The notes beneath the pieces are model-generated. The model was not told the origin of the DNA and made no database searches. It worked only from the letters and a program-made list of their open reading frames with translations. Shown here one piece after another: positions 829 to 15,050 of a stretch of DNA of 15,050 bases. The stretch is from a virus (Duplodnaviria; Heunggongvirae; Uroviricota; Caudoviricetes). Position 1 is the first letter of the stretch, and each line of letters starts with the position of its first letter. A program made the position numbers and the translations under genes. Location: IMG/VR virus record IMGVR_UViG_2713896729_000010, positions 1 to 15,050 of that record. The stretch is one strand, 5' to 3'.

Positions 829-1839
<1,011 letters not shown>

Positions 1840-1915
1840 AACCCTTGCTGCGTCTGGAATGTCGTTTTCCATGCTTTTGATGACCGTTCATCACCCTTCC
1901 AGTTTTTCGCGGTTT

Positions 1916-1970
1916 TGTGTATTGCAATGTGTATTGCAAATTGGCGATCGGGATGGGTGTGTATTGCAAA
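1916..1970 (+). repeat. Three direct copies of GTGTATTGCAA, candidate integrase arm-type binding sites
   Basis: tgtgtattgcaa (1916-1927), tgtgtattgcaaa (1928-1940), gtgtgtattgcaaa (1957-1970), between the core and the int start. The same motif recurs near attR. Confidence 0.6.
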
Positions 1971-1987
1971 TCTCTTGAGGGCTTTTA

Positions 1988-3229
1988 ATGGCTATTGAAA
2001 ACAAACTCAGTGACAAACTGTTAAAGAGTCTTGTCGGAAAACGGCAGGACAAACAAAAAACAATAGCGGATGGGCGCGGGTTGTCTGTGCGTGTAAGCAT
2101 GGTTGGGGGGATCAGCTTTGTTTTTTACTATCGTCTTGGTGGCAGGGAATCCCCTCCGGTATGGCTTACACTTGGTCGCTATCCTGACATGTCTCTTGCA
2201 ACGGCCAGGCGCATGCGTGATCAGTGCCGTGAATGGCTGGCTGAAAATCTGGACCCCCGCAGGCAAATAAAACTTGCTGCCGAAAAAACTATGCAACCAG
2301 TGACCGTAAGGGATGCGCTGTTTTACTGGTACGACAATCACGCCACAACAGCCAGAAAAGAGCATGAATATTTAATAAAACGATTTGAAAAGCATATCTT
2401 CCCCTATATCGGTGATATGGCTATAGAACAGTGCAAATTACACACATGGCTTACCGTCTTTGACAGGATCAAAAAAAATGCGCCTGTTATGTCTGGTGCA
2501 ATTTTTCTTGATATCAAACAGGCGTTGCGTTTTTGTCGCGTCAGGCAATACATCGCGTGCGATCCCTTTGGAGATATTAACGTAAGTTATGTCGGGCGCT
2601 CATCCGGTATAAGGGATCGCGTTCTTAATATCAATGAAACCGCTGATGTATGGTCTTATGCTTACGGTAATAATTTGCTAACTCTGTCATCAATATATAA
2701 CCGAAGAATAATGGTTATCTGCCTGGTGTTTGGTTGCCGACAGCAGGAGGCGAGGCTATCCACCTGGGACGAATGGGATTTAAAAAACTGGGTATGGACA
2801 GTCCCAAAAGAGCACAGCAAAAACAAGGAGGCTATAGTAAGGCCTGTTCCTGACGGAATAAAACAATGGATCGTTAATCTTTACGCAGAAACAAAAAATC
2901 GCGGTTATGTTGTCGGTTGTGCTTTGCAAAGGGCGACAATAACAGGGGCTGCAAACAGAATATGCAGGCGTCTTGGTCATGATACTAATGGCTTGTGGTG
3001 CATACATGATTTCAGGCGCACATTTTCCACTACGCTTAATGATATGGGGGCGGATCCTTATATTGTCGAACTTCTTTTAGGTCATAAAGTGAAAGGGGTT
3101 GCTGGTGTTTACAATAAAAGCAGGCATATAAAGAAAAAACTTGAGGTGCTTAATATGTGGGTTAATTACCTTAATACGATAGCAGGATTTAACAACAACG
3201 TTATCGAGCTTAATAAAGAGGTGGTGTGA
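1988..3229 (+). CDS. int: Tyrosine site-specific integrase, P4-like family
   Basis: 413 aa. N-terminal arm-binding-like region (GRGLSVRVSMVGGISFVFYYRLGG...YPDMSLATARRMRDQ). C-terminal catalytic motifs CRQQEA (R), HDFRRTF (HxxR) and GVYNKS (Y nucleophile). SD gaggg 6-7 nt upstream of the ATG. Confidence 0.95.
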   Translation: MAIENKLSDKLLKSLVGKRQDKQKTIADGRGLSVRVSMVGGISFVFYYRLGGRESPPVWLTLGRYPDMSLATARRMRDQCREWLAENLDPRRQIKLAAEKTMQPVTVRDALFYWYDNHATTARKEHEYLIKRFEKHIFPYIGDMAIEQCKLHTWLTVFDRIKKNAPVMSGAIFLDIKQALRFCRVRQYIACDPFGDINVSYVGRSSGIRDRVLNINETADVWSYAYGNNLLTLSSIYNRRIMVICLVFGCRQQEARLSTWDEWDLKNWVWTVPKEHSKNKEAIVRPVPDGIKQWIVNLYAETKNRGYVVGCALQRATITGAANRICRRLGHDTNGLWCIHDFRRTFSTTLNDMGADPYIVELLLGHKVKGVAGVYNKSRHIKKKLEVLNMWVNYLNTIAGFNNNVIELNKEVV

Positions 3230-3230
3230 T

Positions 3231-3488
3231 ATGGCAATTTATTCTCTTGTTGATGAAAACGATTTGCGCACAATGAAGGACATTGATCGGTTCATTCGTG
3301 AAAAAGAGTGCATAGCACTTACCACGCTGGCAAACTCAACACGCTGGAAAATGGAGCAGGCAGGTAAATTCCCGCGACGTATCAAGATCGGTGAACGTGC
3401 TGCAGGGTATCGACTTTCAGAGGTTCAGGCATGGATCCGTGGTGAGTGGCATCCTGGATGGAAACCTGGAAAAACAAAACAGCAATAA
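3231..3488 (+). CDS. alpA: AlpA-family HTH regulator / excisionase-like protein
   Basis: 85 aa. Translation ...IALTTLANSTRWKMEQAGKFPRRIKIGERAAGYRLSEVQAWIRGEW resembles the AlpA/Vis helix-turn-helix. Start is 1 nt after the int stop, so likely translationally coupled. Confidence 0.85.
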   Translation: MAIYSLVDENDLRTMKDIDRFIREKECIALTTLANSTRWKMEQAGKFPRRIKIGERAAGYRLSEVQAWIRGEWHPGWKPGKTKQQ

Positions 3489-3501
3489 CCAGTAAATAAT
3501 G

Positions 3502-3524
3502 CCCCTCATCACGAGGGGTTTTTT
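3502..3524 (+). terminator. Rho-independent terminator after alpA
   Basis: CCCCTC-ATCAC-GAGGGG stem-loop followed by TTTTTT. Confidence 0.75.
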
Positions 3525-3544
3525 GTCTATAAGGTAAAAACGCG

Positions 3545-4123
3545 ATGAATAAAAATATTGCCGTGACGGGCAAGGGGTACGCTCGTCCAGTGAAAAAATT
3601 CTGCGATATTCGTGATCTCGTCGTTCTGCGCTTTGATAGTGTGAACGTTCGTGTGGTGTATCTGAACGGCGATCCGTGGTTTGTTGCAAAAGATGTTTGT
3701 GCTGCGCTGGAACTAACCAATTCGCGTACGGCGTTGCAGATGCTTGATGATGATGAAAAGGGAGTAAATTTAACTTACACCCCAGGAGGAAATCAGAATA
3801 TGAGAATTATCTCTGAGTCAGGTTTCTACAAACTAATAGCCCGCAGCCGCAAAGCAACGACGCCTGGCACATTTGCTCATCGTTTCAGTAACTGGGTATT
3901 CAGAAATGTGATACCAGGTATCAGAAAAACGGGGACTTATGGTATCCCGTGGGGTGCATTACAGGATTTTTCCCGCCGTAAAGAGCAATATCAAATAAGT
4001 GCCAGCGAGAAGGGGAGGGAGCTACAGGCATGTAAGCGCAAAAAGCGTGAGCTGGAGGAAGAAGAAAAAACGCTGATACGTGAATATCAGCCTGAGTTTT
4101 ACTTTGGTAACCGCATTCAGTGA
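3545..4123 (+). CDS. Bro-N domain protein (antirepressor-like), with a charged coiled-coil-like C-terminus
   Basis: 192 aa. N-terminal region VRVVYLNGDPWFVAKDVCAALELTNSRTALQMLDDDEKGV...RIISESGFYKLIARSRK fits the Bro-N fold as I recall it. C-terminus is K/E-rich (KRKKRELEEEEKTL). Confidence 0.75.
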   Translation: MNKNIAVTGKGYARPVKKFCDIRDLVVLRFDSVNVRVVYLNGDPWFVAKDVCAALELTNSRTALQMLDDDEKGVNLTYTPGGNQNMRIISESGFYKLIARSRKATTPGTFAHRFSNWVFRNVIPGIRKTGTYGIPWGALQDFSRRKEQYQISASEKGRELQACKRKKRELEEEEKTLIREYQPEFYFGNRIQ

Positions 4124-4132
4124 CAAAACAAA

Positions 4133-4153
4133 GGCGACCGCAAAAGGGTCGCC
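4133..4153 (-). terminator. Rho-independent terminator for the leftward regulator operon
   Basis: GGCGACC-gcaaaag-GGTCGCC hairpin. The T-run (tttgttttgtca) lies on the minus-strand 3' side, so it terminates leftward transcription; there is no T-run on the plus side. Confidence 0.65.
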
Positions 4154-4219
4154 AGTGGGAACAAGGGAAAACAAAAGCATCACCAACAATGCCACATTTG
4201 CGGCTGGTGGGCAATGTGA

Positions 4220-4399
4220 TCAGTCAGATTTGGTTCGTTCCAAGGTTTGCAACGAGAGCTTTTTCCTGTGCTCTTTAAGGAATTTCTCAAGAGCAAACGA
4301 ACAAGGTGCGAATCTTTCTGATTCATGTTCATGCGCTATATTTTTGCGTCGTCTCTTACGAGTTGGTGATGGTGTTTTGGTTGATTCTGTGTCGCTCAT
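4220..4399 (-). CDS. Small basic hypothetical protein (59 aa), second gene of the leftward operon
   Basis: Not in the supplied track (below its size cut-off). Hand translation MSDTESTKTPSPTRKRRRKNIAHEHESERFAPCSFALEKFLKEHRKKLSLQTLERTKSD. SD AGGA 7 nt upstream of the ATG. Lies between the 101-aa gene and the minus-strand terminator. Confidence 0.4.
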   Translation of the reverse strand: MSDTESTKTPSPTRKRRRKNIAHEHESERFAPCSFALEKFLKEHRKKLSLQTLERTKSD

Positions 4400-4456
4400 G
4401 GTGCTGTCCTGTAAAGCAATGCGCCTGCGTTCCTCAAACTATGGCGCTGATATTGG

Positions 4457-4762
4457 CTATTCATGCTCTTTGACCTTGCGTCGCTGGAGTTCTTCACGCG
4501 CGACGGTGACGAGTTGCCCGATCTCCTCGGCTGCTTTGATGCCGATTTGTTCGACCTTAGCCAGGGCATCCAGTGACGACACAAGGGGATTTTCTCCGCT
4601 GCCTTCTGCTTGGCGGCGGGCTATTTCTCCGCGCATGGCGGTTACGATAAATCCGGCATTGCTTTCACCGTCCAGCTTAACGGATTCCATCCCTTGCATA
4701 ACATCTAGTGGGACTCTGACAGTTGTCAGTTGTGATTTTGCGTTTTTGTTAGCCGTTGCCAT
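4457..4762 (-). CDS. Hypothetical protein (101 aa), candidate island repressor/regulator by position
   Basis: Strong SD AGGAG 8 nt upstream of the ATG. Divergent from the rightward early operon across a palindromic operator. No family recognised from sequence. Confidence 0.7.
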   Translation of the reverse strand: MATANKNAKSQLTTVRVPLDVMQGMESVKLDGESNAGFIVTAMRGEIARRQAEGSGENPLVSSLDALAKVEQIGIKAAEEIGQLVTVAREELQRRKVKEHE

Positions 4763-4823
4763 TTCTGAAACTCCTAATCATCGGTGTGTTTCAGTATACA
4801 CAAAAAAAGAAATACAAAAAGCC

Positions 4824-4861
4824 TTGACGTGTGTTTCATGCGCTCATAACATGAAACACAC
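4824..4861 (+). promoter_or_regulatory. Candidate sigma-70 promoter of the rightward early operon overlapped by a perfect 12-bp inverted-repeat operator
   Basis: -35 TTGACG (4824-4829), 17-bp spacer, -10 TAACAT (4847-4852). Inverted repeat GTGTGTTTCATG (4829-4840) / CATGAAACACAC (4850-4861) with 9-bp spacer. Extra half-site GTGTGTTTCAG at 4784-4794. Confidence 0.55.
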
Positions 4862-4952
4862 CGAAAGGATTGTTGAAATACAAAGAGCAACGCCCCGCAG
4901 TGCTGGGAACACATACGGGGCGTCTAACCAACAACGTAAACTAGGAGCCGTT

Positions 4953-5150
4953 ATGGTTGCTGTAAATCATATACCACACCTTGTACACACACAAACGGCC
5001 TTTGTGTGGCGTTTTCTGGCACTGAGTGCCGGAGAATCTCAAATCATCCACGTAACCGCCTGGACGGAACGCGAAGCGCGTAGCCGTTGCCCGTCCGGTT
5101 GTGTTGCTGTATTCGCTGCAAAAATCCGCCAGGGAGTGAGTCATGCTTAA
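4953..5150 (+). CDS. Hypothetical small protein (65 aa), first gene of the rightward early operon
   Basis: SD AGGAG (4944-4948) 4 nt before the ATG. Translation MVAVNHIPHLVHTQTAFVWRFLALSAGESQIIHVTAWTEREARSRCPSGCVAVFAAKIRQGVSHA. This is the C-terminal part of the track's 4080..5150 ORF, which I reject as a whole. Confidence 0.55.
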   Translation: MVAVNHIPHLVHTQTAFVWRFLALSAGESQIIHVTAWTEREARSRCPSGCVAVFAAKIRQGVSHA

Positions 5151-5328
5151 AACCTTCCGTGTATTTGCCCGAGCTGTTAACCCAATAGGCCACACAATTG
5201 GTATCGCTCAGAATGTGAAGGCTGTTAATGTTCAGACGGCTATTGCTGCGGTGAGAAGCGAATCATCAGAATATGGCTTATCACAAGTCATTATTTCAGC
5301 AGTGTATGAATTAAAAGAGGTGCATTAA
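5143..5328 (+). CDS. Hypothetical small protein (61 aa)
   Basis: Start overlaps the upstream stop (ATGCTTAA); SD gggag upstream. Confidence 0.5.
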   Translation: MLKTFRVFARAVNPIGHTIGIAQNVKAVNVQTAIAAVRSESSEYGLSQVIISAVYELKEVH

Positions 5329-5519
5329 TGCAGGAAATTACATTACACGAAGCCGCTGAACGTGCGCACCAGACAGAAATTATTTGCCGCCTTCTTGAGG
5401 TATACCCGAACAAAATTACAGATGCTGATATATCCGCACTGGCGAGCCTACTGGCGCGTCTTTCGGGAAGTGTCGCTAGTTTTTTGATTGAGGAAGAAAG
5501 TAAGCTGGTGGGGGATTAA
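5328..5519 (+). CDS. Hypothetical small acidic protein (63 aa)
   Basis: TAATG stop/start overlap with the upstream gene; SD aagagg upstream. Confidence 0.55.
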   Translation: MQEITLHEAAERAHQTEIICRLLEVYPNKITDADISALASLLARLSGSVASFLIEEESKLVGD

Positions 5520-5741
5520 ATGAATACAGAACGGGAAGTCTTTTTTAAATTGTTAGCATGTGCAGAAAGTTCATTAACTTTAAATAATTCAGCAAAAGCA
5601 ATATTAAATATGTGGCTTGATTGCATAAATGACAATGAAGATGCAAATATTGCTTATGGCCTGTTGTCACTTATTGATGAATCAGCAGAAAAACTCAATG
5701 ACGCAATAAATAGTGCCCTGCTATCAAATAAGTCGAGTTAA
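5520..5741 (+). CDS. Hypothetical small acidic protein (73 aa) in an AT-rich segment
   Basis: TAAATG overlap with the upstream gene. Local base composition is visibly AT-richer than its neighbours, suggesting a recently acquired cargo gene. Confidence 0.5.
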   Translation: MNTEREVFFKLLACAESSLTLNNSAKAILNMWLDCINDNEDANIAYGLLSLIDESAEKLNDAINSALLSNKSS

Positions 5742-5758
5742 GTCGAGGAATAAATAAT

Positions 5759-6058
5759 ATGGAAATGAAAAATTCTGGCTTTATTGCCAGCGGCCCCGCT
5801 CGACCTGAATTTATGAACGGCGATATTTACCGCGATAAATACGGCGGCACGGTAACGATTAAAGGCGTGGCAGAACGGCGCATCACTTACCGCCGTGAGG
5901 GGTATAGCTATGACTGCGTGATGCCTGTTTATCAGTTCCGGCGTGATTTTCCCCTGGTATATGCCGCACCCCGCAGTAAGCCCATCAGCAGGGAAAAAGC
6001 GTGGGGAAATATCCAGAAAATGAAAACCATGATTAACGGATTCAGAGGTAAAAAATGA
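5759..6058 (+). CDS. Hypothetical protein (99 aa), translationally coupled to the helicase gene
   Basis: SD gagga upstream. Stop overlaps the helicase start (ATGA at 6055-6058). Confidence 0.6.
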   Translation: MEMKNSGFIASGPARPEFMNGDIYRDKYGGTVTIKGVAERRITYRREGYSYDCVMPVYQFRRDFPLVYAAPRSKPISREKAWGNIQKMKTMINGFRGKK

Positions 6059-7809
6059 AACTGGCACCGAACGTAAAACAGCAGTCACGCGGCATAAAAC
6101 ACAAAGGAACAGAAGTCATTATTTTTGCGGGTAGTGATGCCTGGGCACACGCGAAACAATGGCAGGAACATGATGCGCGTATGGCCGGAGATAATGAGCC
6201 TCCTGTGTGGCTTGGGGAGCAGCAGCTATCCGAACTGGATAATCTGCAAATTGTGCCGGAAGGCCGAAAATCAGCACGCATATACAGGGCCGGATATCTT
6301 GCGCCTGTAATGATAAAGGCGATTGGTCAGAAGCTGGCGGCAGCAGGCGTACAGGATGCAAATTTTTATCCTGAGGGTATGCACGGCCAGGAGGTGCAGA
6401 ACTGGCGCGAATATCTGGCCCGTGAACGCCAGAATCTTTCTGATGGTCTGGTCATTGAGCTTCCGGTAAAGCAAAAGGCGCAACTTTCGCAGATGGCGGA
6501 CAGTGAGCGCGCGCAGTTGCTTGCCGATCGCTTTGATGGCGTTTGCGTACATCCTGAAAGTGAAATCGTTCACGTATGGCGCGGCGGGGTATGGTGTCCG
6601 GTCAGCACAATGGAACTTAGCCGCGAAATGGTGGCGATCTATTCAGAGCACAGGGCCACTTTCAGCAAGCGCGTAATCAATAACGCCGTGGAAGCGTTAA
6701 AAGTTATTGCCGAACCAATGGGCGAGCCGTCTGGCGATTTGCTGCCGTTCGCCAATGGTGCGCTTGACCTGAAAACGGGGGAATTTTCCCCGCACACGCC
6801 GGAGAACTGGATCACCACGCACAACGGCATTGAGTACACGCCACCAGCACCAGGGGAGAACATCCGCGATAACGCGCCAAACTTTCATAAATGGCTTGAG
6901 CACGCAGCCGGAAAAGACCCGCGCAAGATGATGCGTATATGTGCCGCGCTGTACATGATTATGGCGAACCGGTACGACTGGCAGATGTTTATTGAGGCCA
7001 CCGGAGACGGCGGGAGCGGTAAAAGTACATTCACACACATAGCCAGCCTTCTGGCAGGGAAACAGAACACGGTAAGCGCTGAAATGACATCGCTTGATGA
7101 TGCTGGTGGACGTGCGCAGGTTGTCGGGAGTCGTCTTATCGTCCTGGCTGACCAGCCGAAATATACAGGCGAAGGAACGGGCATCAAGAAAATCACAGGC
7201 GGCGACCCCGTGGAAATTAACCCGAAATATGAAAAGCGTTTCACGGCGGTAATCAGGGCGGTGGTGCTGGCGACCAACAACAACCCGATGATATTCACCG
7301 AACGGGCCGGAGGTGTGGCACGTCGTCGCGTGATTTTCCGTTTCGACAATATCGTCAGTGAGGCCGAAAAAGACAGGGAGCTACCGGAAAAGATTGCGGC
7401 TGAAATCCCCGTTATTATCCGCCGATTGCTGGCGAACTTTACCGACCCTGAGAAGGCACGGGCTTTACTACTGGAACAGCGTGACGGTGATGAAGCACTG
7501 GCAATAAAGCAACAGACGGATCCGGTTATTGAGTTTTGCCAGTTCCTGAATTTTCTGGAGGAAGCGCGCGGCCTGATGATGGGTGGCGGTGGTGATTCAG
7601 TGAAGTACACGACCAGGAACAGCCTTTACCGCGTCTATCTGGCGTTTATGGCATACGCGGGCAGGAGCAAACCGCTAAACGTGGCTGAGTTCAGCAAGGC
7701 CATGAAGCCAGCGGCGAAAGTTTACGGGCATGAATATATTACGCGAAAAGTTAAGGGAGTAACGCAGACCAACGCAATTACAACAGACGATTGCGACGCG
7801 TTTTTATAA
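6055..7809 (+). CDS. Replication initiator / SF3 helicase (D5_N-like domain plus NTPase, resembling the P4 alpha C-terminal half); no clear primase motif seen in the N-terminus
   Basis: 584 aa. Walker A GDGGSGKST and Walker B-like LIVLADQ. The conserved region before the NTPase resembles the D5_N / P4-family C-terminal domain. Iteron origin immediately downstream. Confidence 0.88.
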   Translation: MKLAPNVKQQSRGIKHKGTEVIIFAGSDAWAHAKQWQEHDARMAGDNEPPVWLGEQQLSELDNLQIVPEGRKSARIYRAGYLAPVMIKAIGQKLAAAGVQDANFYPEGMHGQEVQNWREYLARERQNLSDGLVIELPVKQKAQLSQMADSERAQLLADRFDGVCVHPESEIVHVWRGGVWCPVSTMELSREMVAIYSEHRATFSKRVINNAVEALKVIAEPMGEPSGDLLPFANGALDLKTGEFSPHTPENWITTHNGIEYTPPAPGENIRDNAPNFHKWLEHAAGKDPRKMMRICAALYMIMANRYDWQMFIEATGDGGSGKSTFTHIASLLAGKQNTVSAEMTSLDDAGGRAQVVGSRLIVLADQPKYTGEGTGIKKITGGDPVEINPKYEKRFTAVIRAVVLATNNNPMIFTERAGGVARRRVIFRFDNIVSEAEKDRELPEKIAAEIPVIIRRLLANFTDPEKARALLLEQRDGDEALAIKQQTDPVIEFCQFLNFLEEARGLMMGGGGDSVKYTTRNSLYRVYLAFMAYAGRSKPLNVAEFSKAMKPAAKVYGHEYITRKVKGVTQTNAITTDDCDAFL

Positions 7810-7824
7810 TTTTTTGTAAAAGCC

Positions 7825-8042
7825 ATCTACCCCATCTACCTGAACAAAATAAACGCATATTATTCAACATGATAAGTGGGTATAGGGCTAGGTAGAAGGC
7901 TAATAAAAGCTCTCTACCTCTTCTACCTGATTTTATCAGTTTCAGGTAGCAGGGTAGACGGCAGGTAGAGGAGTCAAAAAGCTATCTACCCGCTGAAAGC
8001 CGCGCCATTACTGACATGATGAGCATTCGGGTAGATGGGTAG
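7825..8042. repeat. Iteron-type replication origin: at least 11 copies of GGTAG / CTACC arranged as inverted clusters
   Basis: ccatctaccccatctacc (7823-7840); ggtag at 7891, 7945, 7953, 7964, 8030, 8038; ctacc at 7914, 7923, 7986. Terminal clusters are mutual reverse complements (catctacc / ggtagatg). Lies directly after the initiator gene. Confidence 0.8.
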
Positions 8043-8157
8043 AGGGGGGGAGGCACAACTAAAAACTTTTTAAACGAGGGGGGGGTGAAAATAAATGCGC
8101 ATACATAAAAATCACTTAATAAACATGCCAGCCGAAAACATGAATCAGGGGCGACAA

Positions 8158-8409
8158 ATGACCAAAATTCGCAGAGACAGAACACAGGCAAAATATAAAG
8201 CGTTAGACATGACAGAGCTTTCCTTAAAGGTGGCAATCAAAGCGATAGACCACCACACACGGGCAGGATACGCGAAGGAACATCCCGACCTGATAAGCGC
8301 ATTCATGACCACAGCAGCGGCAAACTTTGCCACGCTGACAGAACGGGAGATTGCCGAAGCGGAACAGGTGACAACCATCAATGTTAAAACCGGAGAGCAG
8401 ACAGCATGA
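8158..8409 (+). CDS. Hypothetical protein (84 aa; start uncertain, alternative starts at 8139 or 8095)
   Basis: SD agggg 6 nt before ATG 8158. Stop overlaps the SSB-like gene start (ATGA at 8406). Confidence 0.55.
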   Translation: MTKIRRDRTQAKYKALDMTELSLKVAIKAIDHHTRAGYAKEHPDLISAFMTTAAANFATLTEREIAEAEQVTTINVKTGEQTA

Positions 8410-8855
8410 CAGCACAGATAGCGGCTTACGGGCGGCTGGTGGCTGACCCGCAGTTAAAGACCACCAGCAAAGGGACACAAATGGCGATGGCGAGTATGGC
8501 GGTTCCCCTGCCGTGCAGCCAGGCAGATGACGGAACGGCGACGATGTGGTTATCCGTCCTGGCGTTTGGCAGACAGGCCGACGCACTGGCAAAACACCAC
8601 AAAGGCGAACTGGTGAGCGTGGCGGGTAACATGCAGGTAAGCCAGTGGACAGGCCAGAACGGCGAAACGCGGCGGGGCTGGCAGGTTATCGCAGACAGCG
8701 TAATCAGTGCGCGAACGGCGCGACCGGGCGGCAAAAAAGGCCAACAGGGGCAGGCTACTGACGAACTGAACAGAGCAAAACAACAGGCAGATCAGCAAGG
8801 AAGCCAGCCACCAGTGGGAGATAATGAGCAATGGGGAGATGATATCCCGTTTTAA
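8406..8855 (+). CDS. ssb: Single-stranded DNA-binding protein homologue with SSB-like acidic C-terminal tip
   Basis: 149 aa. OB-fold-like N-terminus (GRLVADPQLKTTSKGTQMAMASMAV...WLSVLAFGRQADALAKHHKGELVSVAGNMQVSQW), Gly/Gln-rich linker, and C-terminus ...WGDDIPF resembling the DDDIPF tip of bacterial SSB. Confidence 0.8.
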   Translation: MTAQIAAYGRLVADPQLKTTSKGTQMAMASMAVPLPCSQADDGTATMWLSVLAFGRQADALAKHHKGELVSVAGNMQVSQWTGQNGETRRGWQVIADSVISARTARPGGKKGQQGQATDELNRAKQQADQQGSQPPVGDNEQWGDDIPF

Positions 8856-8873
8856 ATATTGCCAATAAAAAAG

Positions 8874-8897
8874 GCCGGAAAAAATAAATTTTCCGGC
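8874..8897 (+). other. Perfect hairpin between the replication and capsid modules
   Basis: GCCGGAAAA-aataaa-TTTTCCGGC, 9-bp stem. No T-run after it, so not a canonical terminator on the plus strand. Confidence 0.5.
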
Positions 8898-9071
8898 ATG
8901 CTACATAAATCCCGACCAAAGGGAGTGAAGATATTAACACTAATTGTCCGCACTGAAGTTGTCACCCCAAAACTTTATACAACATTGCACTCGGTTGCAT
9001 GTGTTCGCATGACAAATATCGGTGGTAGCATATATCCACAATTATTTTTAATGAATGCAAAGAGGATGCGT

Positions 9072-10112
9072 ATGGTTGATTTATATTCGCCTACTCAGCT
9101 TGTACAGGTGGTTAATGCTGTAGATGTACAAAAACAACTAAATGCGTTGTTTACCAGTTTGTTTTTTACTCGCTCGGTAATGTTTGAATCGCGCGATATT
9201 ATTCTTGATACAATCGACGATCCAAATATCCCAATTGCAGCGTTTTGTTCTCCTATGGTGGGTAGTAAAGTTTCACGTGACGAAGGGTACGAATCAAAAA
9301 CAATTCGTCCAGGCTATATGAAGCCGAAAAGCAGCATTGATCCAAATAAGTTAGCTGTGCGCCCTGCTGGTGTATCACCTGAGCAATACAATGCTTTTGG
9401 GGCACGTAATATTAAAGTTAAACAGGCGATTGTAAATCAGGCTAAAGCTATTCGTGCACGTATTGAATGGCTTGCTGTTCAGGCAATCACAACGGGGAAA
9501 AATATCATTGAGGGCGATGGTATTGAACGTTATGAGCTGGACTGGAATATAAAACCACAAAATATCATCACTCAGTCTGGCGGTACTGAGTGGTCAGGTA
9601 AGGATAAAGAAACTTTTGATCCAAATGATGATATTGAGAGCTACGCAGAATTTAGTGAGGGCGTCACTAATATCATCATTATGGGTGGTAATGTATGGAA
9701 GAAATACCGTTCATTCAGAGCGATAAAAGAGGCTTTGGATACCCGTCGTGGTTCTAATTCCGAACTGGAAACGGCCCTTAAAGACCTTGGTGATTCGGTG
9801 AGTTTTAAAGGGTATATGGGCGATGTTGCGATTGTTGTTTACAGCGGGCGTTATACCGACGAGGACGGAACAGAAAAACATTTCCTTGATCCTGATTTGA
9901 TGGTGCTTGGCAATACGGCTCTTCAGGGGATTGTCGCCTATGGCGGTATTCAGGATCCGGAGCTAATCCGAATGGGGCTGACTAAAGCCGAACTTGCACC
10001 GAAAAACTATATTGTGCCTGGTGATCCGGCTATTGAATATGTGCAGACACATTCAGCACCACAGCCAATACCGGCCCGCATCAATCGTTTTGTTACCGTT
10101 CGCATTGGCTAA
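9072..10112 (+). CDS. Major capsid protein, homologue of lambda gpE
   Basis: 346 aa from ATG 9072 (SD aagagg 8 nt upstream). Collinear similarity to lambda E as I recall it: N-terminus MVDLYSPTQL versus MSMYTTAQL; NIITQSGGTEWSGKDKETFDPNDDIESYA versus NITQSGGTEWSKRDKSTYDPTDDIEAYA; LDTRRGSNSELETALKDLG...GDVAIVVYSG nearly identical. The track ORF starts at an upstream TTG (8859), which I reject. Confidence 0.9.
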   Translation: MVDLYSPTQLVQVVNAVDVQKQLNALFTSLFFTRSVMFESRDIILDTIDDPNIPIAAFCSPMVGSKVSRDEGYESKTIRPGYMKPKSSIDPNKLAVRPAGVSPEQYNAFGARNIKVKQAIVNQAKAIRARIEWLAVQAITTGKNIIEGDGIERYELDWNIKPQNIITQSGGTEWSGKDKETFDPNDDIESYAEFSEGVTNIIIMGGNVWKKYRSFRAIKEALDTRRGSNSELETALKDLGDSVSFKGYMGDVAIVVYSGRYTDEDGTEKHFLDPDLMVLGNTALQGIVAYGGIQDPELIRMGLTKAELAPKNYIVPGDPAIEYVQTHSAPQPIPARINRFVTVRIG

Positions 10113-10121
10113 GGGGGAGCA

Positions 10122-10463
10122 ATGGCTACTCATTACACTGAACTCATGGCTGGCACTGAAGCACTGGTGACTACGCTGGGGATATTTTCAGCTAATAAAG
10201 GGGTAATTCCTGCATTTACGCCACTGATGCAGGAAGATGCAACAGGTGCACTGGTGGTATGGGATGGTTCGAGCGTAGGTAAAGCGGTTTATGTTTCCGC
10301 TGTACAAATCGACACAGCGAAAAAAACACAGGCACAGGTTTATAAGACAGGTGTTTTAAATGTTGATGCTCTGAACTGGCCTGAGTCTGTAAAAGAACTG
10401 TCGGCAAAGGTTGCCGCGTTTGTTGGCTCAGGTATTTCTGTTCAGCCGCTGGCTCGTGTGTAA
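10122..10463 (+). CDS. Head decoration protein, homologue of lambda gpD
   Basis: 113 aa, SD gggggag. Similar to lambda D as I recall it: TPLM..D....LVVWDG...YK.G......WPE......AF.G..IS. Confidence 0.85.
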   Translation: MATHYTELMAGTEALVTTLGIFSANKGVIPAFTPLMQEDATGALVVWDGSSVGKAVYVSAVQIDTAKKTQAQVYKTGVLNVDALNWPESVKELSAKVAAFVGSGISVQPLARV

Positions 10464-10474
10464 AGGGGGATACA

Positions 10475-10858
10475 ATGCAGAATCATTACAATGACCTTAA
10501 GCCAATTGCCGAAATGATGTATCCGGATCCAGCAGTAGAGGAATTAAAGGCTATTGCTGACAAAATGCGTTTAAGTGAACGCCTTGTTGATATGAATCAG
10601 GTGATGGAACTTACTACCCTTAGCCGTCGCACATTGCTAAACCTTGAGGCTAGTGGAGAGTTCCCGGAGCGTGTGCAGGTTACGGAAGGGCGTAAGGCCT
10701 GGTATTTAAGTGAAGTGATCGACTGGATAAACAATATTCCTCGATCTTCTGAATATTGCCGCGTACCTGTCCCAAAAAAGCCAGATGCGGCGCTATGCCT
10801 CAAGATTGAGCGTGTACGTCGCAATGCACGGGATGGTCGCTATAAGTTGATTGGTTGA
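10475..10858 (+). CDS. Second AlpA-family HTH protein (127 aa, with an N-terminal extension), immediately upstream of cos
   Basis: SD aaggggga. Translation ...MELTTLSRRTLLNLEASGEFPERVQVTEGRKAWYLSEVIDWIN is an AlpA-like helix-turn-helix. Confidence 0.7.
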   Translation: MQNHYNDLKPIAEMMYPDPAVEELKAIADKMRLSERLVDMNQVMELTTLSRRTLLNLEASGEFPERVQVTEGRKAWYLSEVIDWINNIPRSSEYCRVPVPKKPDAALCLKIERVRRNARDGRYKLIG

Positions 10859-10884
10859 TGAAATTAGGGCCCGTTCTGGCTGGC

Positions 10885-10948
10885 GGGTCCTTTCCGGCGA
10901 TCCGGTAGGCTACGGGGCGGCGACCTCGCGGGTTTTCGCTATTTATGA
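10885..10948 (+). other. cos site: lambda-type cosN (12-nt cohesive-end sequence GGGCGGCGACCT at 10915-10926) with lambda-like flanks
   Basis: gggtcctttccggcgatccggtaggctacg|GGGCGGCGACCT|cgcgggttttcgctatttatga agrees almost base for base with the lambda cos junction as I recall it. Sequence downstream (10949-11059), where cosB would be, is unlike lambda. Confidence 0.85.
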
Positions 10949-11059
10949 GCCTTTTTCGGGTGCTGGTGGTGGTTTTGTTGTTCGCTCTATCTCTATGAAT
11001 AAAAAGGAAAAGATAAAGCCAATACACCAACCTGAAACATTACTTAAGTGGGGATATTG

Positions 11060-11530
11060 ATGAAATCGCACCTGATGAACAAAAAAAACATGGCGCAAAG
11101 CTGCCGTGTAAGTGCGACAGCGTTCGACAAGTGGGGAGTGACTCCCGTTGAACGTAAAGGCCGCGAGGCGTTTTATGATGTTGCCAGCGTAATAGACAAT
11201 CGGGTTAGCAATGCAATTAACCAGATTACAGACGACAAAGGCGAGATTGATGATGATGAACTCCTACGAGTCAGGATCAGATTGCTGACAGCACAGGCAG
11301 AGGCGCAGGAGCTTAAAAACGAGCGCGAACGCGGCGACGTTATTGATACAGCGTTTTGTATATACGTGCTTTCAAAATTGGCGAGTCAGATTTCTTCAAT
11401 CATGGACAGCCTGCCGCTTGCCATGACAAGGAAGTTTCCCGACATGAAGCCGTCTATGCTGGATGGACTGAAAAAGAAGTTATCAGAGCCTGTAACGCAT
11501 GCGCAAAACTTGACGAAAACATACCGCTGA
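11060..11530 (+). CDS. Terminase small subunit, homologue of lambda Nu1; the C-terminal Nu1-like segment continues in the -1 frame to 11601
   Basis: N-terminal ..NKKNMAQSCRVSATAFDKWGV aligns with the Nu1 N-terminus (NKKQLADIFGASIRTIQNWQEQG). Central block LTAQAEAQELKNERERGDVIDTAFCIYVLSKLASQISSIMDSLPLAMTRKFP is nearly collinear with Nu1 (LTRAQADAQELKNARDSAEVVETAFCTFVLSRIAGEIASILDGLPLSVQRRFP). Start could also be 11075 or 11090. Confidence 0.85.
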   Translation: MKSHLMNKKNMAQSCRVSATAFDKWGVTPVERKGREAFYDVASVIDNRVSNAINQITDDKGEIDDDELLRVRIRLLTAQAEAQELKNERERGDVIDTAFCIYVLSKLASQISSIMDSLPLAMTRKFPDMKPSMLDGLKKKLSEPVTHAQNLTKTYR

Positions 11531-11612
11531 TGCTGTCCGATTATCTGATGGAAACTGCCGGAAACGTACCGGATAAGTTGCAGCCGAATAAAGATAAGTA
11601 ACGTAGTACGCT

Positions 11613-11894
11613 ATGACTGAATCCGAAATACTGCGATTAATCCGCCGTGCTTGTGGAATCAGCAAGCAGCATGACGAACAGGCCACGCAGCCGGACAGCG
11701 TGACCGCAGATAATTATGTGCGTGTAGTGGCTGAGGTGATGCGCCGTGACGGTATTGAGCTTAACGGCGTGGATATGCGCAACATACGAACAAGAGTCCT
11801 TGAGTTGCTGGCATATCGTCGCCGTTCTCAACAACGGAGGGAGAGCGCGAAAAATACTTACCAGTGGAAGAAGCCGGAACGATTGCGGCGGTAA
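11613..11894 (+). CDS. Hypothetical basic protein (93 aa) downstream of the small terminase gene
   Basis: ORF with Arg-rich C-terminus (RRRSQQRRESAKNTYQWKKPERLRR). Weak SD and no recognisable family. Confidence 0.45.
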   Translation: MTESEILRLIRRACGISKQHDEQATQPDSVTADNYVRVVAEVMRRDGIELNGVDMRNIRTRVLELLAYRRRSQQRRESAKNTYQWKKPERLRR

Positions 11895-12146
11895 CTTGCT
11901 GATATTCCCGATAACGCAAAATTGCGCTGGCTGACTTGTTGCATTGCAAAAAGTTAAGCAGGAAGGCACGGCCTGTAAGATGGGATGCAGTAAGTAGTTC
12001 AAGGCTACCTTGTGCTGGCACGCACAGTTAAGCCGTCGGTGCTGGATATCCCCCACTGGGGGAAAAGCTGGCTACATCCCTCACATCTGAGGACTGATAA
12101 CGCGACATTGCGCTGGCTGGCAAAGTGCAAAATTGCACGATGGCCT

Positions 12147-12290
12147 AACCCATTGATTATTTCGAAAACCTGCAATGCAGGAAATCGGGGAAGTAAGCCT
12201 AAGCTATTGATTGTTTCGAAAACCCCCATTGGGGGATGTCGGGAAAGTAAGACTAACCCATTGATTCTTCCACAATCCTCAATTTGAGGA
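12147..12290. repeat. Tandem ~54-bp repeat, 2.7 copies, each with a different 13-bp palindrome
   Basis: Conserved unit (C/G)C(C/T)ATTGATT.TT.C.A.AA.CC followed by cctgcaAtgcagg (12169-12181), cccccaTTggggg (12223-12235) and cctcaaTttgagg (12277-12289). Confidence 0.75.
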
Positions 12291-12608
12291 GGCCGGAACG
12301 TCTACATAGCTGCATCGCCGTAATGATGATTCAGCCCACCAGCCAAATCAGCACAGCAACGACAGAATAGCCCGACACAGAAAAACCACGAATATGGGGT
12401 TTTTGTTATGACATGGTCATGATGACCACTCATACAAAACAGGTAAAGCCCACCAGCCTGATTAAAGGTTAACCGGAAAAAAGCCAGGTATCCAATCTCG
12501 ATATGGGGATCCCTATATCGACATTAACGCCCACTAAAACTGTGCATATATGCATAGAAAAAGCATCCACCAGCTTTATGACGGATGCCGCTCATCTTAT
12601 AAATAATC

Positions 12609-12630
12609 GTGTATTGCAGTGTGTATTGCG
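12609..12630 (+). repeat. Two further direct copies of the GTGTATTGC(A/G) arm-type motif near attR
   Basis: gtgtattgca (12609-12618) and gtgtattgcg (12621-12630), about 75-95 bp from the right core, same orientation as the three copies near attL. Confidence 0.6.
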
Positions 12631-12703
12631 ACTCCTTTAAACGATAGGTCTGAGCATTCGTAATGTACTGTTTTTAAATTTTATTTTTTCCTGTCTTTTC
12701 ATA

Positions 12704-12716
12704 AAGGCGATGTATG
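12704..12716. repeat. attR core (right copy of the 13-bp direct repeat)
   Basis: AAGGCGATGTATG; phage-identical sequence continues rightward (gtatgccgccaccattgag). Confidence 0.8.
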
Positions 12717-12933
12717 CCGCCACCATTGAGAGTGAGCTGGATACGCAGTCAGCGATGGATTTTATTCTGGGCGCGAACAGTCAGGAGCAGCGGGAAAGGC
12801 TGACCGGCTGGATTGGTGAAATTGCCGCGTATTACGCCGCAGCGCCGGTCCGGCTGGGAGGCGCAAAAGTACCGCACCTGATGCCGGGGGACTCACTGAA
12901 CCTGCAGACGGCTCAGGACACGGATAACGGCTA
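12704..12933 (+). CDS. B: lambda-type portal protein B, continuation after the island (truncated at the N10 gap)
   Basis: In frame from the core: KAMYAATIESELDTQSAMDFILGANSQEQRERLTGWIGEIAAYYAAAPVRLGGAKVPHLMPGDSLNLQTAQDTDNG, matching the region of lambda B that follows ...QSAIVKA. Confidence 0.9.
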
Positions 12934-12943: not shown

Positions 12944-13063
12944 ATCGGCCTGGAATTTATCCAGCGCATCGTGCAGCGGTTGTGGGAACTCATAGTTACC
13001 AGTGTAGGTCACGCCGAAAGTCGGCACCACGCCGATGGTGTTTTCGTCACAGGCTTCAATCAT
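12944..13063 (-). CDS. Internal 40-codon fragment of glutamate decarboxylase (GadA/GadB-like), isolated between two N10 runs
   Basis: Minus-strand translation [40 protein letters not shown] matches an internal segment of E. coli Gad as I recall it. Confidence 0.6.
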
Positions 13064-13073
13064 NNNNNNNNNN
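13064..13073. other. N10 run, assembly gap or contig join
   Basis: Ten N. Confidence 0.9.
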
Positions 13074-13673
<600 letters not shown>

Positions 13674-13683
13674 NNNNNNNNNN
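13674..13683. other. N10 run, assembly gap or contig join
   Basis: Ten N; the J frame does not continue across it. Confidence 0.9.
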
Positions 13684-15050
13684 ATAACGCGTCCGCAGTG
13701 GCACAGAACACGGCAGCCGCAAAGAAGTCAGCCAGCGATGCCGGCACATCTGCCCGTGAGGCGGCAACCCATGCAACCGATGCTGCAGGCTCAGCACGTG
13801 CCGCCAGCACGTCAGCCGGACAGGCTGCATCATCTGCTCAGTCAGCATCTTCCAGCGCAGGAACGGCATCAACAAAGGCCACTGAAGCATTAAAAAGTGC
13901 TGCCGCTGCAGAGTCCTCAAAAAGCGCGGCAGCCACCAGTGCCGGTGCGGCGAAAACGTCAGAAACGAATGCCGCAGCATCACAACTATCAGCAGCCACT
14001 TCTGCATCCACCGCGACCACGAAGGCGTCAGAAGCTGCCACCTCAGCCCGGGATGCGGCGGCCTCAAAAGAGGCAGCGAAATCATCAGAAACGAACGCAT
14101 CATCAAGTGCCAGTAGTGCAGCTTCCTCGGCAACGGCGGCAGGAAATTCCGCGAAGGCCGCAAAAACGTCTGAGACGAATGCGGATAACAGCGCACAGGC
14201 GGCAGCAGACTCACAAACTGCATCGGCAAACTCCGCGACAGCCGCCAAAAAATCAGAAACCAACGCGAAAAATAGCGAGGCAGCAGCAAAGAGCAGCGAA
14301 ACAAACGCTAAAGCCAGCGAAACTAATGCTAAATCCAGTGAAACAAACGCGGCGAAATCTGCGGCGGACGCACTTAATTATCGCAACCATGCTCAGGGTA
14401 TTGTTGGTGCTAACATCGGTTTGGGATCATCACCGCGCAATTGTCCTGATATTTCCGGTGATCCATCCGGTTATATTGGCTTTATGCGCATTTTTGCTTC
14501 CGCAACAGGTTTTCCGTCTATTGCATCAGGCGAAGGTAATCTTACTGGTTTTATTAGTCAGGTAGATGGAACACCAGCGTATACAGGTGTATTTCAGGGA
14601 TGGACTACTCGCTCGCTTTATACCTATCGCTGGAGTCCGACAATAGGCCCGCAATGGACACGCCACGCTCGCAAAAATGAAGTGGACCGTCTTGACCAAT
14701 TGAATAGCGAAACATGGTTATATAACCATGATAAATCCATGCGCCTGGGTTTAACCGCCTCATCATGGGGTTGTTACAGCGATACACAAAAAAAATGGAT
14801 ACCGCTTGATGTTTCTCATGGTGGCACTGGCGCGGCAACTATTGATGGTGCCAGAACTAATCTTGGATTAGGCAGGGATAACAGCCCTCAGCTTAATAGT
14901 CTATTTCTCGATAGGACTAGTGATTCTACTGGCGCATACACTACTGGCGGGATGCTCCATACGAGACTGTTAGCAAATGATAACACTGTGCGCCTTGCCG
15001 CTGATATGTATGTTCAGACTTTTCCAAATGAGCAAGGTCGATTAACAATA
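13684..15050 (+). CDS. stf: Side tail fiber protein (lambda Stf family), partial at both ends, with an Ala/Ser-rich SETNA repeat region
   Basis: Open frame (codons from 13686) with no stop to the window end. Repeats AKTSETNAAAS, AKSSETNASSS, AKTSETNADNS, KKSETNAKNS, KSSETNAKASETNAKSSETNAAKS, then a globular region (..NYRNHAQGIVGANIGLGSSPRNCPDISGDPSGYIGF...). Not in the track because it lacks a start and stop inside the window. Confidence 0.85.

Follow-up and report, generated by a model that had tools for sequence, protein, structure and literature searches.

The region described here (6055-8409) is the replication zone of a helper-embedded Gram-negative PICI of E. coli, and its initiator gene, rep, together with the iteron origin lying next to it, very probably constitutes the unit by which the island replicates itself. 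This reading as a replicon is right but already described, with the exception of the question raised by the N-terminal domain of the Rep protein. Throughout, the window designates the whole 15,050-bp stretch of DNA that was analysed, and its features are collected in the table.

Table. Features of the island and of its replication zone (positions in the window; aa, residues of Rep)
Feature	Position	Strand	Basis or remark
Portal fragment	958-1839		Matches the profile up to position 242 of 354
attL	1780-1787		AAGGCGAT
int	1988-3229	+	
alpA	3231-3488	+	
Bro-N	3545-4123	+	
DUF4222 ORF, 99 aa	5759-6058	+	Pfam DUF4222, E 4e-23
rep ('pri-rep'), 584-aa initiator-helicase	6055-7809	+	ORF; Pfam, NCBIfam and PDB matches
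N-terminal alpha/beta domain, aa 1-135	6055-6459	+	Occupies the place of the Zn-ribbon/Toprim primase of P4 alpha-type relatives
D5_N domain, aa 153-282	6511-6900	+	Pfam PF08706, E 1e-15
SF3 P-loop ATPase core, aa 316-417	7000-7305	+	Pfam DUF5906, E 5e-10
Walker A GDGGSGKS, aa 317-324	7003-7026	+	Sequence and alignment A3
Walker B LIVLADQ, aa 361-367	7135-7155	+	Sequence and alignment A3
C-terminal origin-binding domain, aa 487-576	7513-7782	+	Pfam Pox_D5, PDB 1KA8
Origin of replication (predicted)	7818-8046	.	Three ~85-bp units, 12 GGTAGA-type iterons
Origin unit 1	7826-7896	.	TCTACC 7826, 7835; GGTATA 7879; GGTAGA 7891
Origin unit 2	7913-7969	.	TCTACC 7913, 7922; GGTAGC 7945; GGTAGA 7953, 7964
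Origin unit 3	7985-8043	.	TCTACC 7985; GGTAGA 8030, 8038
Conserved 21-bp block CTGAAAGCCGCGCCATTACTG, in unit 3	7993-8013	+	Almost unchanged across 10 E. coli origins
Conserved leader AAAACTTTTTAAACGAGGGGG..AAAATAA	8062-8094	+	Invariant columns in origin alignment
Small conserved ORF, 104 aa	8095-8409	+	phrog_1231, E 1e-48
Island SSB	8406-8855	+	Pfam SSB, E 6e-16; TIGR00621
attR	12704-12711		AAGGCGAT

The island is bounded by the att identity block, present at both 1780 and 12704, and is inserted within a lambdoid portal gene. Its genes lie on one strand in the order int, alpA, Bro-N, DUF4222, rep, ori, SSB, capsid and terS, a unidirectional arrangement which, together with the att repeats, places the region in a Gram-negative PICI context; two AlpA-like HTH proteins are encoded in all. 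In NZ_AP045067 the two parts of the portal gene flank the island, and this split, with the att words in place, identifies a helper-embedded PICI of the site type B_Phage_portal_2_241. Compared with the intact composite in that genome, the surrounding prophage of the window is interrupted at 829 and 12933; the helper is thus a remnant, and induction of the island may for that reason be rare. It is very unlikely that the module is itself an inactive relic, an island stranded in a deleted prophage whose replicon no longer fires: the broken prophage and one degenerate iteron would fit such decay, but rep retains a full reading frame with 98% identity to an allele that works, nine or more iterons have the canonical sequence, identity with the island copy in the intact helper stands at 99.8%, and the 2.35-kb segment recurs at no less than 99% identity in 51 complete E. 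coli genomes. The segment is absent from phage records at the megablast level, positions 6055-8409 have no Rfam match, and PADLOC assigned no defence family to Rep or to the neighbouring genes.

An initial annotation, made from the letters of the sequence, had proposed a Walker A/B NTPase with a D5_N-like region, and both parts are borne out by the Pfam matches to D5_N and DUF5906 and by the two legible Walker motifs. Rep also matches NCBIfam TIGR01613 ('primase_Cterm, P4 family'), and its SF3 core matches the SaPI5 primase-helicase (PDB 7OLA, E 4e-15). Motif C is centred on N409, the sensor 1 Asn, with R423/R424 as candidate arginine finger; both are read from the sequence and alignment A3, in which G317, G320, G322, K323, S324, Q367, N409, R423 and R424 are invariant. 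With Walker A and B, motif C, the arginine finger and a preceding D5_N domain, Rep has the make-up of an SF3 helicase of the D5/P4 alpha clade. A search for Rep homologues returned only near-identical E. coli copies, and alignment depth was taken from a 50%-cluster search with the N-terminal domain; AlphaFold run on the single full-length sequence gave an unusable model (pLDDT 36). At the other end of Rep, Pox_D5 is matched by aa 487-575 and the P4 alpha origin-binding domain (PDB 1KA8, E 8e-6) by aa 488-576, so that Rep possesses the C-terminal origin-binding domain of P4 alpha-type proteins. This domain is the predicted reader of the iterons, because it is homologous to that of P4 alpha and because iteron words and domain change together across species.

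The pentamer GGTAG/CTACC occurs 19 times in the window, overall no more often than in shuffled sequences (mean 15.7), and 11 of these copies lie within 216 bp (7827-8042) directly after the rep stop codon, where the density elsewhere in the window would predict 0.12 (Poisson P = 1.2e-18), in agreement with the earlier count of at least 11 iterons right after the gene. The true repeat unit is the hexamer GGTAGA/TCTACC, of which 10 of the 11 copies in the window fall within 7826-8043, the first iteron standing 17 bp past the stop codon. The array had been described as inverted terminal clusters, and its leftmost pair (7826 and 7835, minus sense) and rightmost pair (8030 and 8038, plus sense) are indeed inverted; what does not hold is the overall plan, for the array really consists of three units of ~85 bp, each running from minus-sense iterons through a spacer to plus-sense iterons. 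The spacer of unit 1 (7841-7878, 38 bp, 74% A+T) is a candidate melting site, that of unit 2 (7928-7944) has 17 bp and 76% A+T, and that of unit 3 has 46% A+T; facing iteron sets around the first two correspond to the origin design of Gram-negative PICIs. Across ten E. coli origins that are 56-80% identical to that of the window, 72% of iteron columns are invariant versus 24% of those outside the iterons (Fisher P = 5e-12). The degenerate iteron of unit 1, at 7879, is GGTAGA in relatives, and the GGTAGC at 7945 is lineage-specific. Within the origin there is no IHF consensus and no GATC site, and a DnaA-box search gave a single match, at 7813, with one mismatch. A hairpin in the spacer of unit 3 (TTACTGGC..GCCAGTAA), considered as a further element, occurs in CFT073-type origins, is absent from the window and was dropped.

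Other conserved elements lie within and around the array. The DUF4222 ORF ends in an ATGA overlap with the start of rep, and the relatives inspected, CFT073 among them, have this gene annotated directly before rep; together with the SSB gene, it flanks the replication zone. Of the 21-bp block in unit 3, 19 columns are identical in the 10 E. coli origins and the remaining two are shared by at least 90% of sequences, and its position is retained in Raoultella, Symbiopectobacterium, Kluyvera and Aeromonas relatives. Past the origin, where a small hypothetical ORF is annotated in every relative inspected, a Shine-Dalgarno-like GAGGGG precedes the ATG at 8095; RefSeq places the start of this ORF at 8158, giving 83 aa.

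The closest functional evidence comes from EcCICFT073, a characterised PICI whose Pri-Rep is orthologous to Rep of the window (571 of 584 residues identical, 98%). A pri-rep-ori segment of EcCICFT073 maintained a temperature-sensitive plasmid in E. coli, loss of rep abolished replication of the plasmid, and loss of ori significantly reduced it (Fillol-Salom 2018, PMC6092414). That the unit would suffice for replication in E. coli is drawn solely from this 98%-identical counterpart, and it is the conserved iterons that point to origin function in the window, because identity between its origin DNA and that of the tested CFT073 unit is no higher than ~63%. The array could instead be an auxiliary cis site like crr of P4, or a copy-control (handcuffing) array, with the true start elsewhere in the island. 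The P4 array that adjoins the 3′ end of alpha is crr, with the origin proper 4.5 kb distant, and the array of the window is likewise built of repeated units. We nevertheless consider this unlikely to a high degree, since EcCICFT073 rep and the adjacent region replicated alone, A+T-rich spacers are present between facing iterons, and no second cluster, including a P4-like second ori, was found in the island, the lone outside GGTAGA lying at 14561, past attR.

Iteron words were then compared across a set of 80 loci from different species, with repeats sought over the 330 bp that follow rep. In most relatives this stretch carries 5-13 copies of a word characteristic of the lineage, the words being GGTAGA, GGTGAACA, ATGAACA, GTAGGGA and GGTATAC; GGTGAACA is the P4 type-1 repeat and is used by many relatives of Rep. 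Words were set against protein domains for 66 proteins (given as 65 loci plus the window and P4 alpha), in 27 of which, mostly from Xenorhabdus, Photorhabdus and Proteus, no repeat was callable at the threshold in those 330 bp. Pairs of loci sharing a word have 57% identity in the C-terminal domain versus 42% for pairs with different words, the corresponding values for the helicase core being 61% and 56%; label permutation gave P < 0.0005 for the association of word and C-terminal domain, although the loci are related by descent and P values overstate their independence. In these sequences, the iteron word tracks the C-terminal origin-binding domain and not the helicase core. The Kluyvera locus L030 shows a concerted change from GGTAGA to GTAGGGA at every iteron position with the three-unit layout unchanged; L028 and L072 are exceptions, in which GGTAGAC-type repeats accompany an unrelated C-terminal domain. 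The series provides a ready table of cognate protein-site pairs, useful for origin specificity and incompatibility among enterobacterial satellites. It also bears on the idea that the repeats bind another protein, for instance a regulator of the downstream operon such as an AlpA-type protein or the product of the small ORF at 8095. The array is intergenic and upstream of the next genes, and the AlpA-like proteins of the island would be at hand; such a role is nonetheless extremely unlikely, as the repeat word changes with the C-terminal domain of Rep, an origin-binding domain of solved structure is a homologue of this domain, and no sigma-70-like promoter was detected in 7700-8200. An intrinsic terminator was likewise not found in that stretch.

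The satellite-type autonomous replicon first proposed, an SF3 initiator with an iteron origin, therefore draws support from the near identity to the tested Pri-Rep, the homology of the C-terminal domain to that of P4 alpha, the invariance of the hexamers among relatives with diverged spacers, and the joint change of word and domain. After induction and excision, Rep would be made from the rightward operon, and its C-terminal winged-helix domain would recognise the GGTAGA hexamers that directly follow rep on its 3′ side. If SaPI Rep and P4 alpha are a guide, Rep bound to facing iterons would melt the A+T-rich spacers of units 1 and 2 and form a hexameric SF3 helicase moving 3′ to 5′, needing no separate loader. 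The island SSB would coat the single strands and host DnaG would prime, this last being the weakest step.

Priming is where Rep departs from its relatives. The initial annotation had seen no primase motif in the N-terminal ~170 residues, and domain searches agree, nothing in Pfam, NCBIfam or the PDB sequences being matched at thresholds up to E = 10; its doubt was well placed, for P4 alpha and relatives of Rep (L027, L032, L086, L021 and L030) match Zn_Ribbon_Prim and Toprim_3 in this place, and Pfam finds neither in Rep of the window. Rep accordingly lacks the N-terminal zinc ribbon and Toprim (EGYATA motif, DxD) of a P4 alpha-type primase. The 135-aa N-terminal domain that it has instead is rare and falls in no assigned family. 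Compared with the Toprim regions of the P4 alpha-type relatives, it gave an hhalign probability of 1%, and its profile found nothing significant among PDB sequences, in P4 alpha or in the P4-type Toprim alignment. Because all three profile searches were without a significant match, the domain was not classed as Toprim. Its fold resembles Toprim weakly, with a Foldseek match that is not significant and generic flavodoxin-like folds scoring almost as high, and it is likewise without sequence-profile similarity to DnaG-type Toprim and to the primase-like N-terminal region of Twinkle. Residues E20, I23, A25, G26, A29, P50, L58 and G80 of the N-terminal domain are invariant. Those conserved in Toprim are missing: there is no DxD, and the Glu stands at the beginning of strand 1, whereas the conserved Glu of Toprim follows that strand. 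In our own reading, which neither hhalign nor structural alignment supports, A25 would occupy the place of the Toprim Glu, and R75/Y77 that of DxD.

Since Rep is without a Zn-ribbon/Toprim primase and the domain replacing it is without the acidic residues of Toprim, host DnaG most likely lays the primers. The N-terminal domain occurs elsewhere fused to three further helicase families, DUF927, AAA_25 (RepA-like) and VapE. One tentative and rather doubtful idea is that aa 1-135 form an undescribed, portable priming module, either a primase of new chemistry or an adaptor bringing host DnaG to the self-loaded SF3 helicase, which has been transferred among the unrelated D5/SF3, DUF927, AAA_25 and VapE helicases in place of the Zn-ribbon/Toprim primase and recombines independently of the origin-binding domain. 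The protein is named 'primase' in the literature and in RefSeq and has no recognisable primase domain; if the domain recruits DnaG or primes anew, this would explain helper-independent satellite replication, and a widespread annotation would be corrected.

As a replicon, the region is of little weight, being a further copy of a bench-tested PICI rep-ori unit in a catalogued island type. With EcCICFT073, it shares the gene order DUF4222, rep, ori, small ORF and SSB. The origin spacers have diverged (~63% identity in the multiple alignment, 77% by BLAST over 7702-8125), the plus-sense iterons at 7891 and 7945 are absent from CFT073, which has an additional minus-sense iteron, and the CFT073 island occupies a chromosomal site beside roxA, in contrast to the prophage portal gene of the window. 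Helper-embedded PICIs of the type B_Phage_portal_2_241 were documented by Tommasini, Mageeney and Williams 2023 (PMC10111431), where the origin and the Rep domains were not dissected. The island agrees with them in its ~11-kb length, its co-oriented insertion near profile position 242 of a lambda-family portal gene, the att identity AAGGCGAT and the zones Integration, Bro, Replication and Late, and differs in that the helper around it is deleted on both sides. What is added here is the layout of three ~85-bp units of facing GGTAGA/TCTACC hexamers, the invariance of these hexamers while spacers diverge, and the variation by lineage, across 80 species, of the word repeated 3′ of rep, following the C-terminal domain.

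More distantly, Rep has 40% identity with P4 alpha across aa 141-573 (D5_N, SF3 helicase and origin-binding domain), and in both an iteron array in both orientations lies directly 3′ of the gene, crr of P4 having two 120-bp repeats with type-1 iterons in either orientation. P4 differs in its iteron word, in the N-terminal Zn_Ribbon_Prim and Toprim_3 primase of alpha, and in needing two cis sites (ori and crr) where the window has a single cluster. In SaPIs, rep is immediately followed by 6-12 iterons of five or six nucleotides, with at least two per side in opposite orientation and an A+T-rich centre (PMC9371898); the iterons are read by the C-terminal winged helix of SaPI Rep, whose helicase is self-loading (Qiao et al. 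2022, PMC9371898), and a primase is fused to Rep in SaPI5 (PriRep5) but encoded by a separate gene, pri, in SaPI1 (PMC9371898). Although sequence similarity to the SaPI proteins is confined to the ATPase core and the SaPI host is Gram-positive, the window shares with them this SF3 core, a C-terminal winged helix and 5-6-nt iterons after rep around an A+T-rich centre.

The product of rep (Rep) matches the NCBIfam model TIGR01613, 'primase_Cterm, P4 family', and the Walker A/B NTPase with a D5_N-like region proposed in the initial annotation is borne out by Pfam, with matches to D5_N and to the superfamily 3 (SF3) P-loop family DUF5906, and by motifs legible in the protein sequence. In a search of solved structures, the SaPI5 primase-helicase 7OLA matches the Rep core (E 4e-15) and the origin-binding domain of phage P4 alpha, 1KA8, matches the final 90 residues (E 8e-6). 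Both Walker motifs, N409 and R423/R424 are invariant in an alignment extending to P4 alpha. A DUF4222 ORF (5759-6058) shares its last four bases with the start of rep (ATGA), and the relatives inspected likewise have an annotated DUF4222 gene immediately ahead of rep, an arrangement that points to translational coupling and to involvement in replication.

Features of the replication module and its surroundings
Feature	Position	Strand	Detail
rep ORF	6055-7809	+	584 aa
Rep N-terminal domain	6055-6459		~135 aa
D5_N domain of Rep	aa 153-282		Pfam
DUF5906 of Rep	aa 316-417		Pfam; SF3 P-loop family
Walker A of Rep	aa 317-324		GDGGSGKS; read from sequence
Walker B of Rep	aa 361-367		LIVLADQ; read from sequence
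Pox_D5 of Rep	aa 487-575		Pfam
ori unit 1	7826-7896		spacer 38 bp, 74% A+T
ori unit 2	7913-7969		spacer 17 bp, 76% A+T
ori unit 3	7985-8043		spacer 46% A+T
21-bp block	7993-8013		CTGAAAGCCGCGCCATTACTG; after single minus-sense iteron of ori unit 3
Island SSB	8406-8855
Second AlpA-like HTH gene	10475-10858		late zone
Nu1-like small terminase gene	11048-11530		late zone

GGTAG shows no overall enrichment in the window (19 copies versus 15.7 in shuffles). Eleven of the 19 copies lie in 7827-8042, where the remaining window predicts 0.12 (Poisson P = 1.2e-18), in keeping with the earlier count of at least 11 GGTAG/CTACC iterons right after rep. Because the Rep domains are present and the GGTAG/GGTAGA repeats cluster directly 3′ of the gene, the initial observation is confirmed. 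The true repeat unit is the hexamer GGTAGA (plus-sense) or TCTACC (minus-sense), with 10 of its 11 window copies within 7826-8043. The 'inverted terminal clusters' described previously hold for the outermost iteron pairs, but that description missed an internal structure of three units of ~85 bp each (repeat families D1-D3), in which minus-sense hexamers are followed by a spacer and then by plus-sense hexamers. No promoter-like or terminator-like site was found between rep and the next ORF.

Origins of graded similarity were retrieved, and ten were aligned and compared over 7810-8050, where their identity to the window is just 56-80%. Invariant columns make up 72% of iteron positions versus 24% of the others (Fisher P = 5e-12, a generous value given that the aligned origins are related by descent). 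In EcCICFT073, a Gram-negative PICI, Rep is 98% identical to that of the window whereas the origin is ~63% identical in this alignment; selection therefore holds the hexamers while the spacers drift. The 21-bp block has 19 of its 21 columns identical in ten aligned E. coli origins, the other two being at least 90% conserved, and holds its position in relatives from Raoultella (Rep core 46% identical), Symbiopectobacterium, Kluyvera and Aeromonas. Some relatives that keep the block use iteron words other than GGTAGA, and its conservation spans far deeper divergence than that of the iteron word; scanning it for a DnaA box, an IHF site, GATC or the oriC 13-mer gave no match.

Across 80 loci, scanned with one genome per species, the 330 bp after rep mostly carry one word in 5-13 copies that differs by lineage, including GGTAGA, GGTGAACA (the annotated 'ori type 1 repeat' of P4), ATGAACA, GTAGGGA, GGTATAC and others; for 27 of 66 proteins (65 loci plus P4 alpha and the window), this stretch contained no strong repeat at the threshold used. 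The C-terminal domains of GGTAGA loci are mostly 46-54% identical to that of the window regardless of core identity (46-67%), and those of loci with a -GAACA- word or GGTATAC are at most 35% identical, despite cores that are no more distant and in part closer (up to 67%). Loci with GTAGGGA, CAGTGAC or CAGTGCC are intermediate (44-49%). In a set of 29 dereplicated proteins, C-terminal identity is 57% for pairs with the same word versus 42% for different-word pairs, the corresponding core values being 61% and 56% and the C-terminal-to-core ratios 0.93 and 0.76 (label permutation P < 0.0005). A Kluyvera locus (L030) retains the full three-unit layout with GTAGGGA at every iteron position. Such covariation is the signature expected if the C-terminal domain reads the iterons. 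There are exceptions besides the 27 proteins without a strong repeat: Escherichia ruysiae (L028) and Kluyvera georgiana (L072) have GGTAGAC-type repeats in the 330 bp after rep, together with an unrelated C-terminal domain, only ~30% identical to that of the window, and a different origin layout. These two could have converged on a similar word or could read it with another domain.

The absence of a primase motif from the N-terminus, as first described, stands: this region had no match among Pfam, NCBIfam or PDB sequences even at E = 10. The alignment of P4 alpha with Rep does not start before residue 141 of Rep (40% identity over alpha residues 324-756), and the 323 leading residues of P4 alpha bear Zn_Ribbon_Prim and Toprim_3, where Rep has a different domain. 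Relatives at loci L027, L032, L086, L021 and L030 also bear Zn_Ribbon_Prim and Toprim_3, several of them with GGTAGA iterons. With 81 cluster representatives in 1.84 billion proteins, the Rep N-terminal domain is rare; its match usually begins at residue 1 where the protein's N-terminus is present, and it is joined elsewhere to DUF927, AAA_25 and VapE helicases (for example P0122, P0124, P0131, P0140 and P0172) and to other D5_N/DUF5906 helicases. Present in 15 of the 80 species loci, it covers at least five iteron words, so its shuffling is independent of the origin-binding domain. It opens with eight nearly invariant residues, MKxAPN[LV]K, and E20, I23, A25, G26, A29, P50, L58 and G80 are invariant, with no DxD among them; the conserved Glu stands where strand 1 begins rather than where it ends. 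We hold with roughly even confidence that it is a Toprim-like or Toprim-derived fold lacking the catalytic acidic residues, which makes priming by host DnaG the most economical guess; it may instead be a new primase or a DnaG-recruiting domain. This domain without a family, in a protein widely annotated as a primase, is the sole part with real potential for novelty.

Among 5,426 complete E. coli genomes, 1,580 have a match to the 2.35-kb segment; none of the phage records searched does. In NZ_AP045067, the island interrupts a lambdoid portal gene and reads int, HTH (AlpA), Bro-N, YlcI, Icd-like, three small ORFs, DUF4222, 'DNA primase family protein', hypothetical, SSB, major capsid, decoration protein, HTH and small terminase; the window carries the same domains. 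The island is a helper-embedded PICI of the kind described in PMC10111431 (Tommasini et al. 2023), whose supplementary table includes E. coli islands of 11 kb that are assigned to type B_Phage_portal_2_241 and have 'aaggcgat' as their att identity. That identity is the octamer AAGGCGAT found at both island ends (1780-1787 and 12704-12711), and the portal fragment in the window stops at profile position 242. Direct repeats of GTGTATTGC near both ends (~1915-1970 and 12608-12630) are candidate integrase arm sites. The captured head and packaging genes of the late zone (8859-11530), among them lambda E-like major capsid and D-like decoration genes, make up a partial set. A 356-aa ORF from the mechanical ORF list (4080-5150, +) is probably not a gene, since it has no family match and overlaps the YlcI/YnfO (minus strand, 4457-4762) and Icd-like (~4953-5150) genes of the identical island. 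Island and split portal gene match the intact NZ_AP045067 helper-satellite composite at 99.8% identity, but solely within 829-12933 (6775-18880 of that locus, L001). To the left of this stretch the window has hok/sok instead, and to the right a J tip-attachment Ig-like ORF (12982-13893), so the helper prophage is a deletion remnant that leaves the satellite stranded. Left of the remnant, the sok antitoxin RNA of the hok/sok module (436-588, +) is a full-length match to Rfam RF01794 (122 bits; gathering score 59).

The rep-ori design matches that of SaPIs, in which 6-12 iterons lie immediately 3′ of rep, in opposite orientation on the two sides of an A+T-rich centre, and the C-terminal winged helix of Rep recognises penta- or hexanucleotide iterons; SaPI Reps are loader-free, bind and melt independently of ATP, and unwind with 3′-5′ polarity (PMC9371898). 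By analogy, the window Rep would follow the same sequence of iteron binding, melting and loader-free 3′-5′ unwinding, helped by the island SSB. The main rival would make the array a crr-like site, as is the array after alpha in P4, rather than ori; two things weaken it, the lack of a second iteron cluster in the island and an experiment with EcCICFT073. There, rep and the adjoining putative ori maintain a temperature-sensitive plasmid at 44 °C, deletion of rep leaving no colonies and deletion of ori significantly fewer (PMC6092414, Fillol-Salom et al. 2018). Sufficiency of rep-ori, the one step shown, is that of the CFT073 allele alone, and the protein annotated after the DUF4222 gene of EcCICFT073 is identical to the window Rep at 571 of 584 residues. 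We assign the replication function to rep-ori with high confidence; the satellite-type autonomous replication proposed at the outset is an accurate reading, already established through the near-identical EcCICFT073 Rep.
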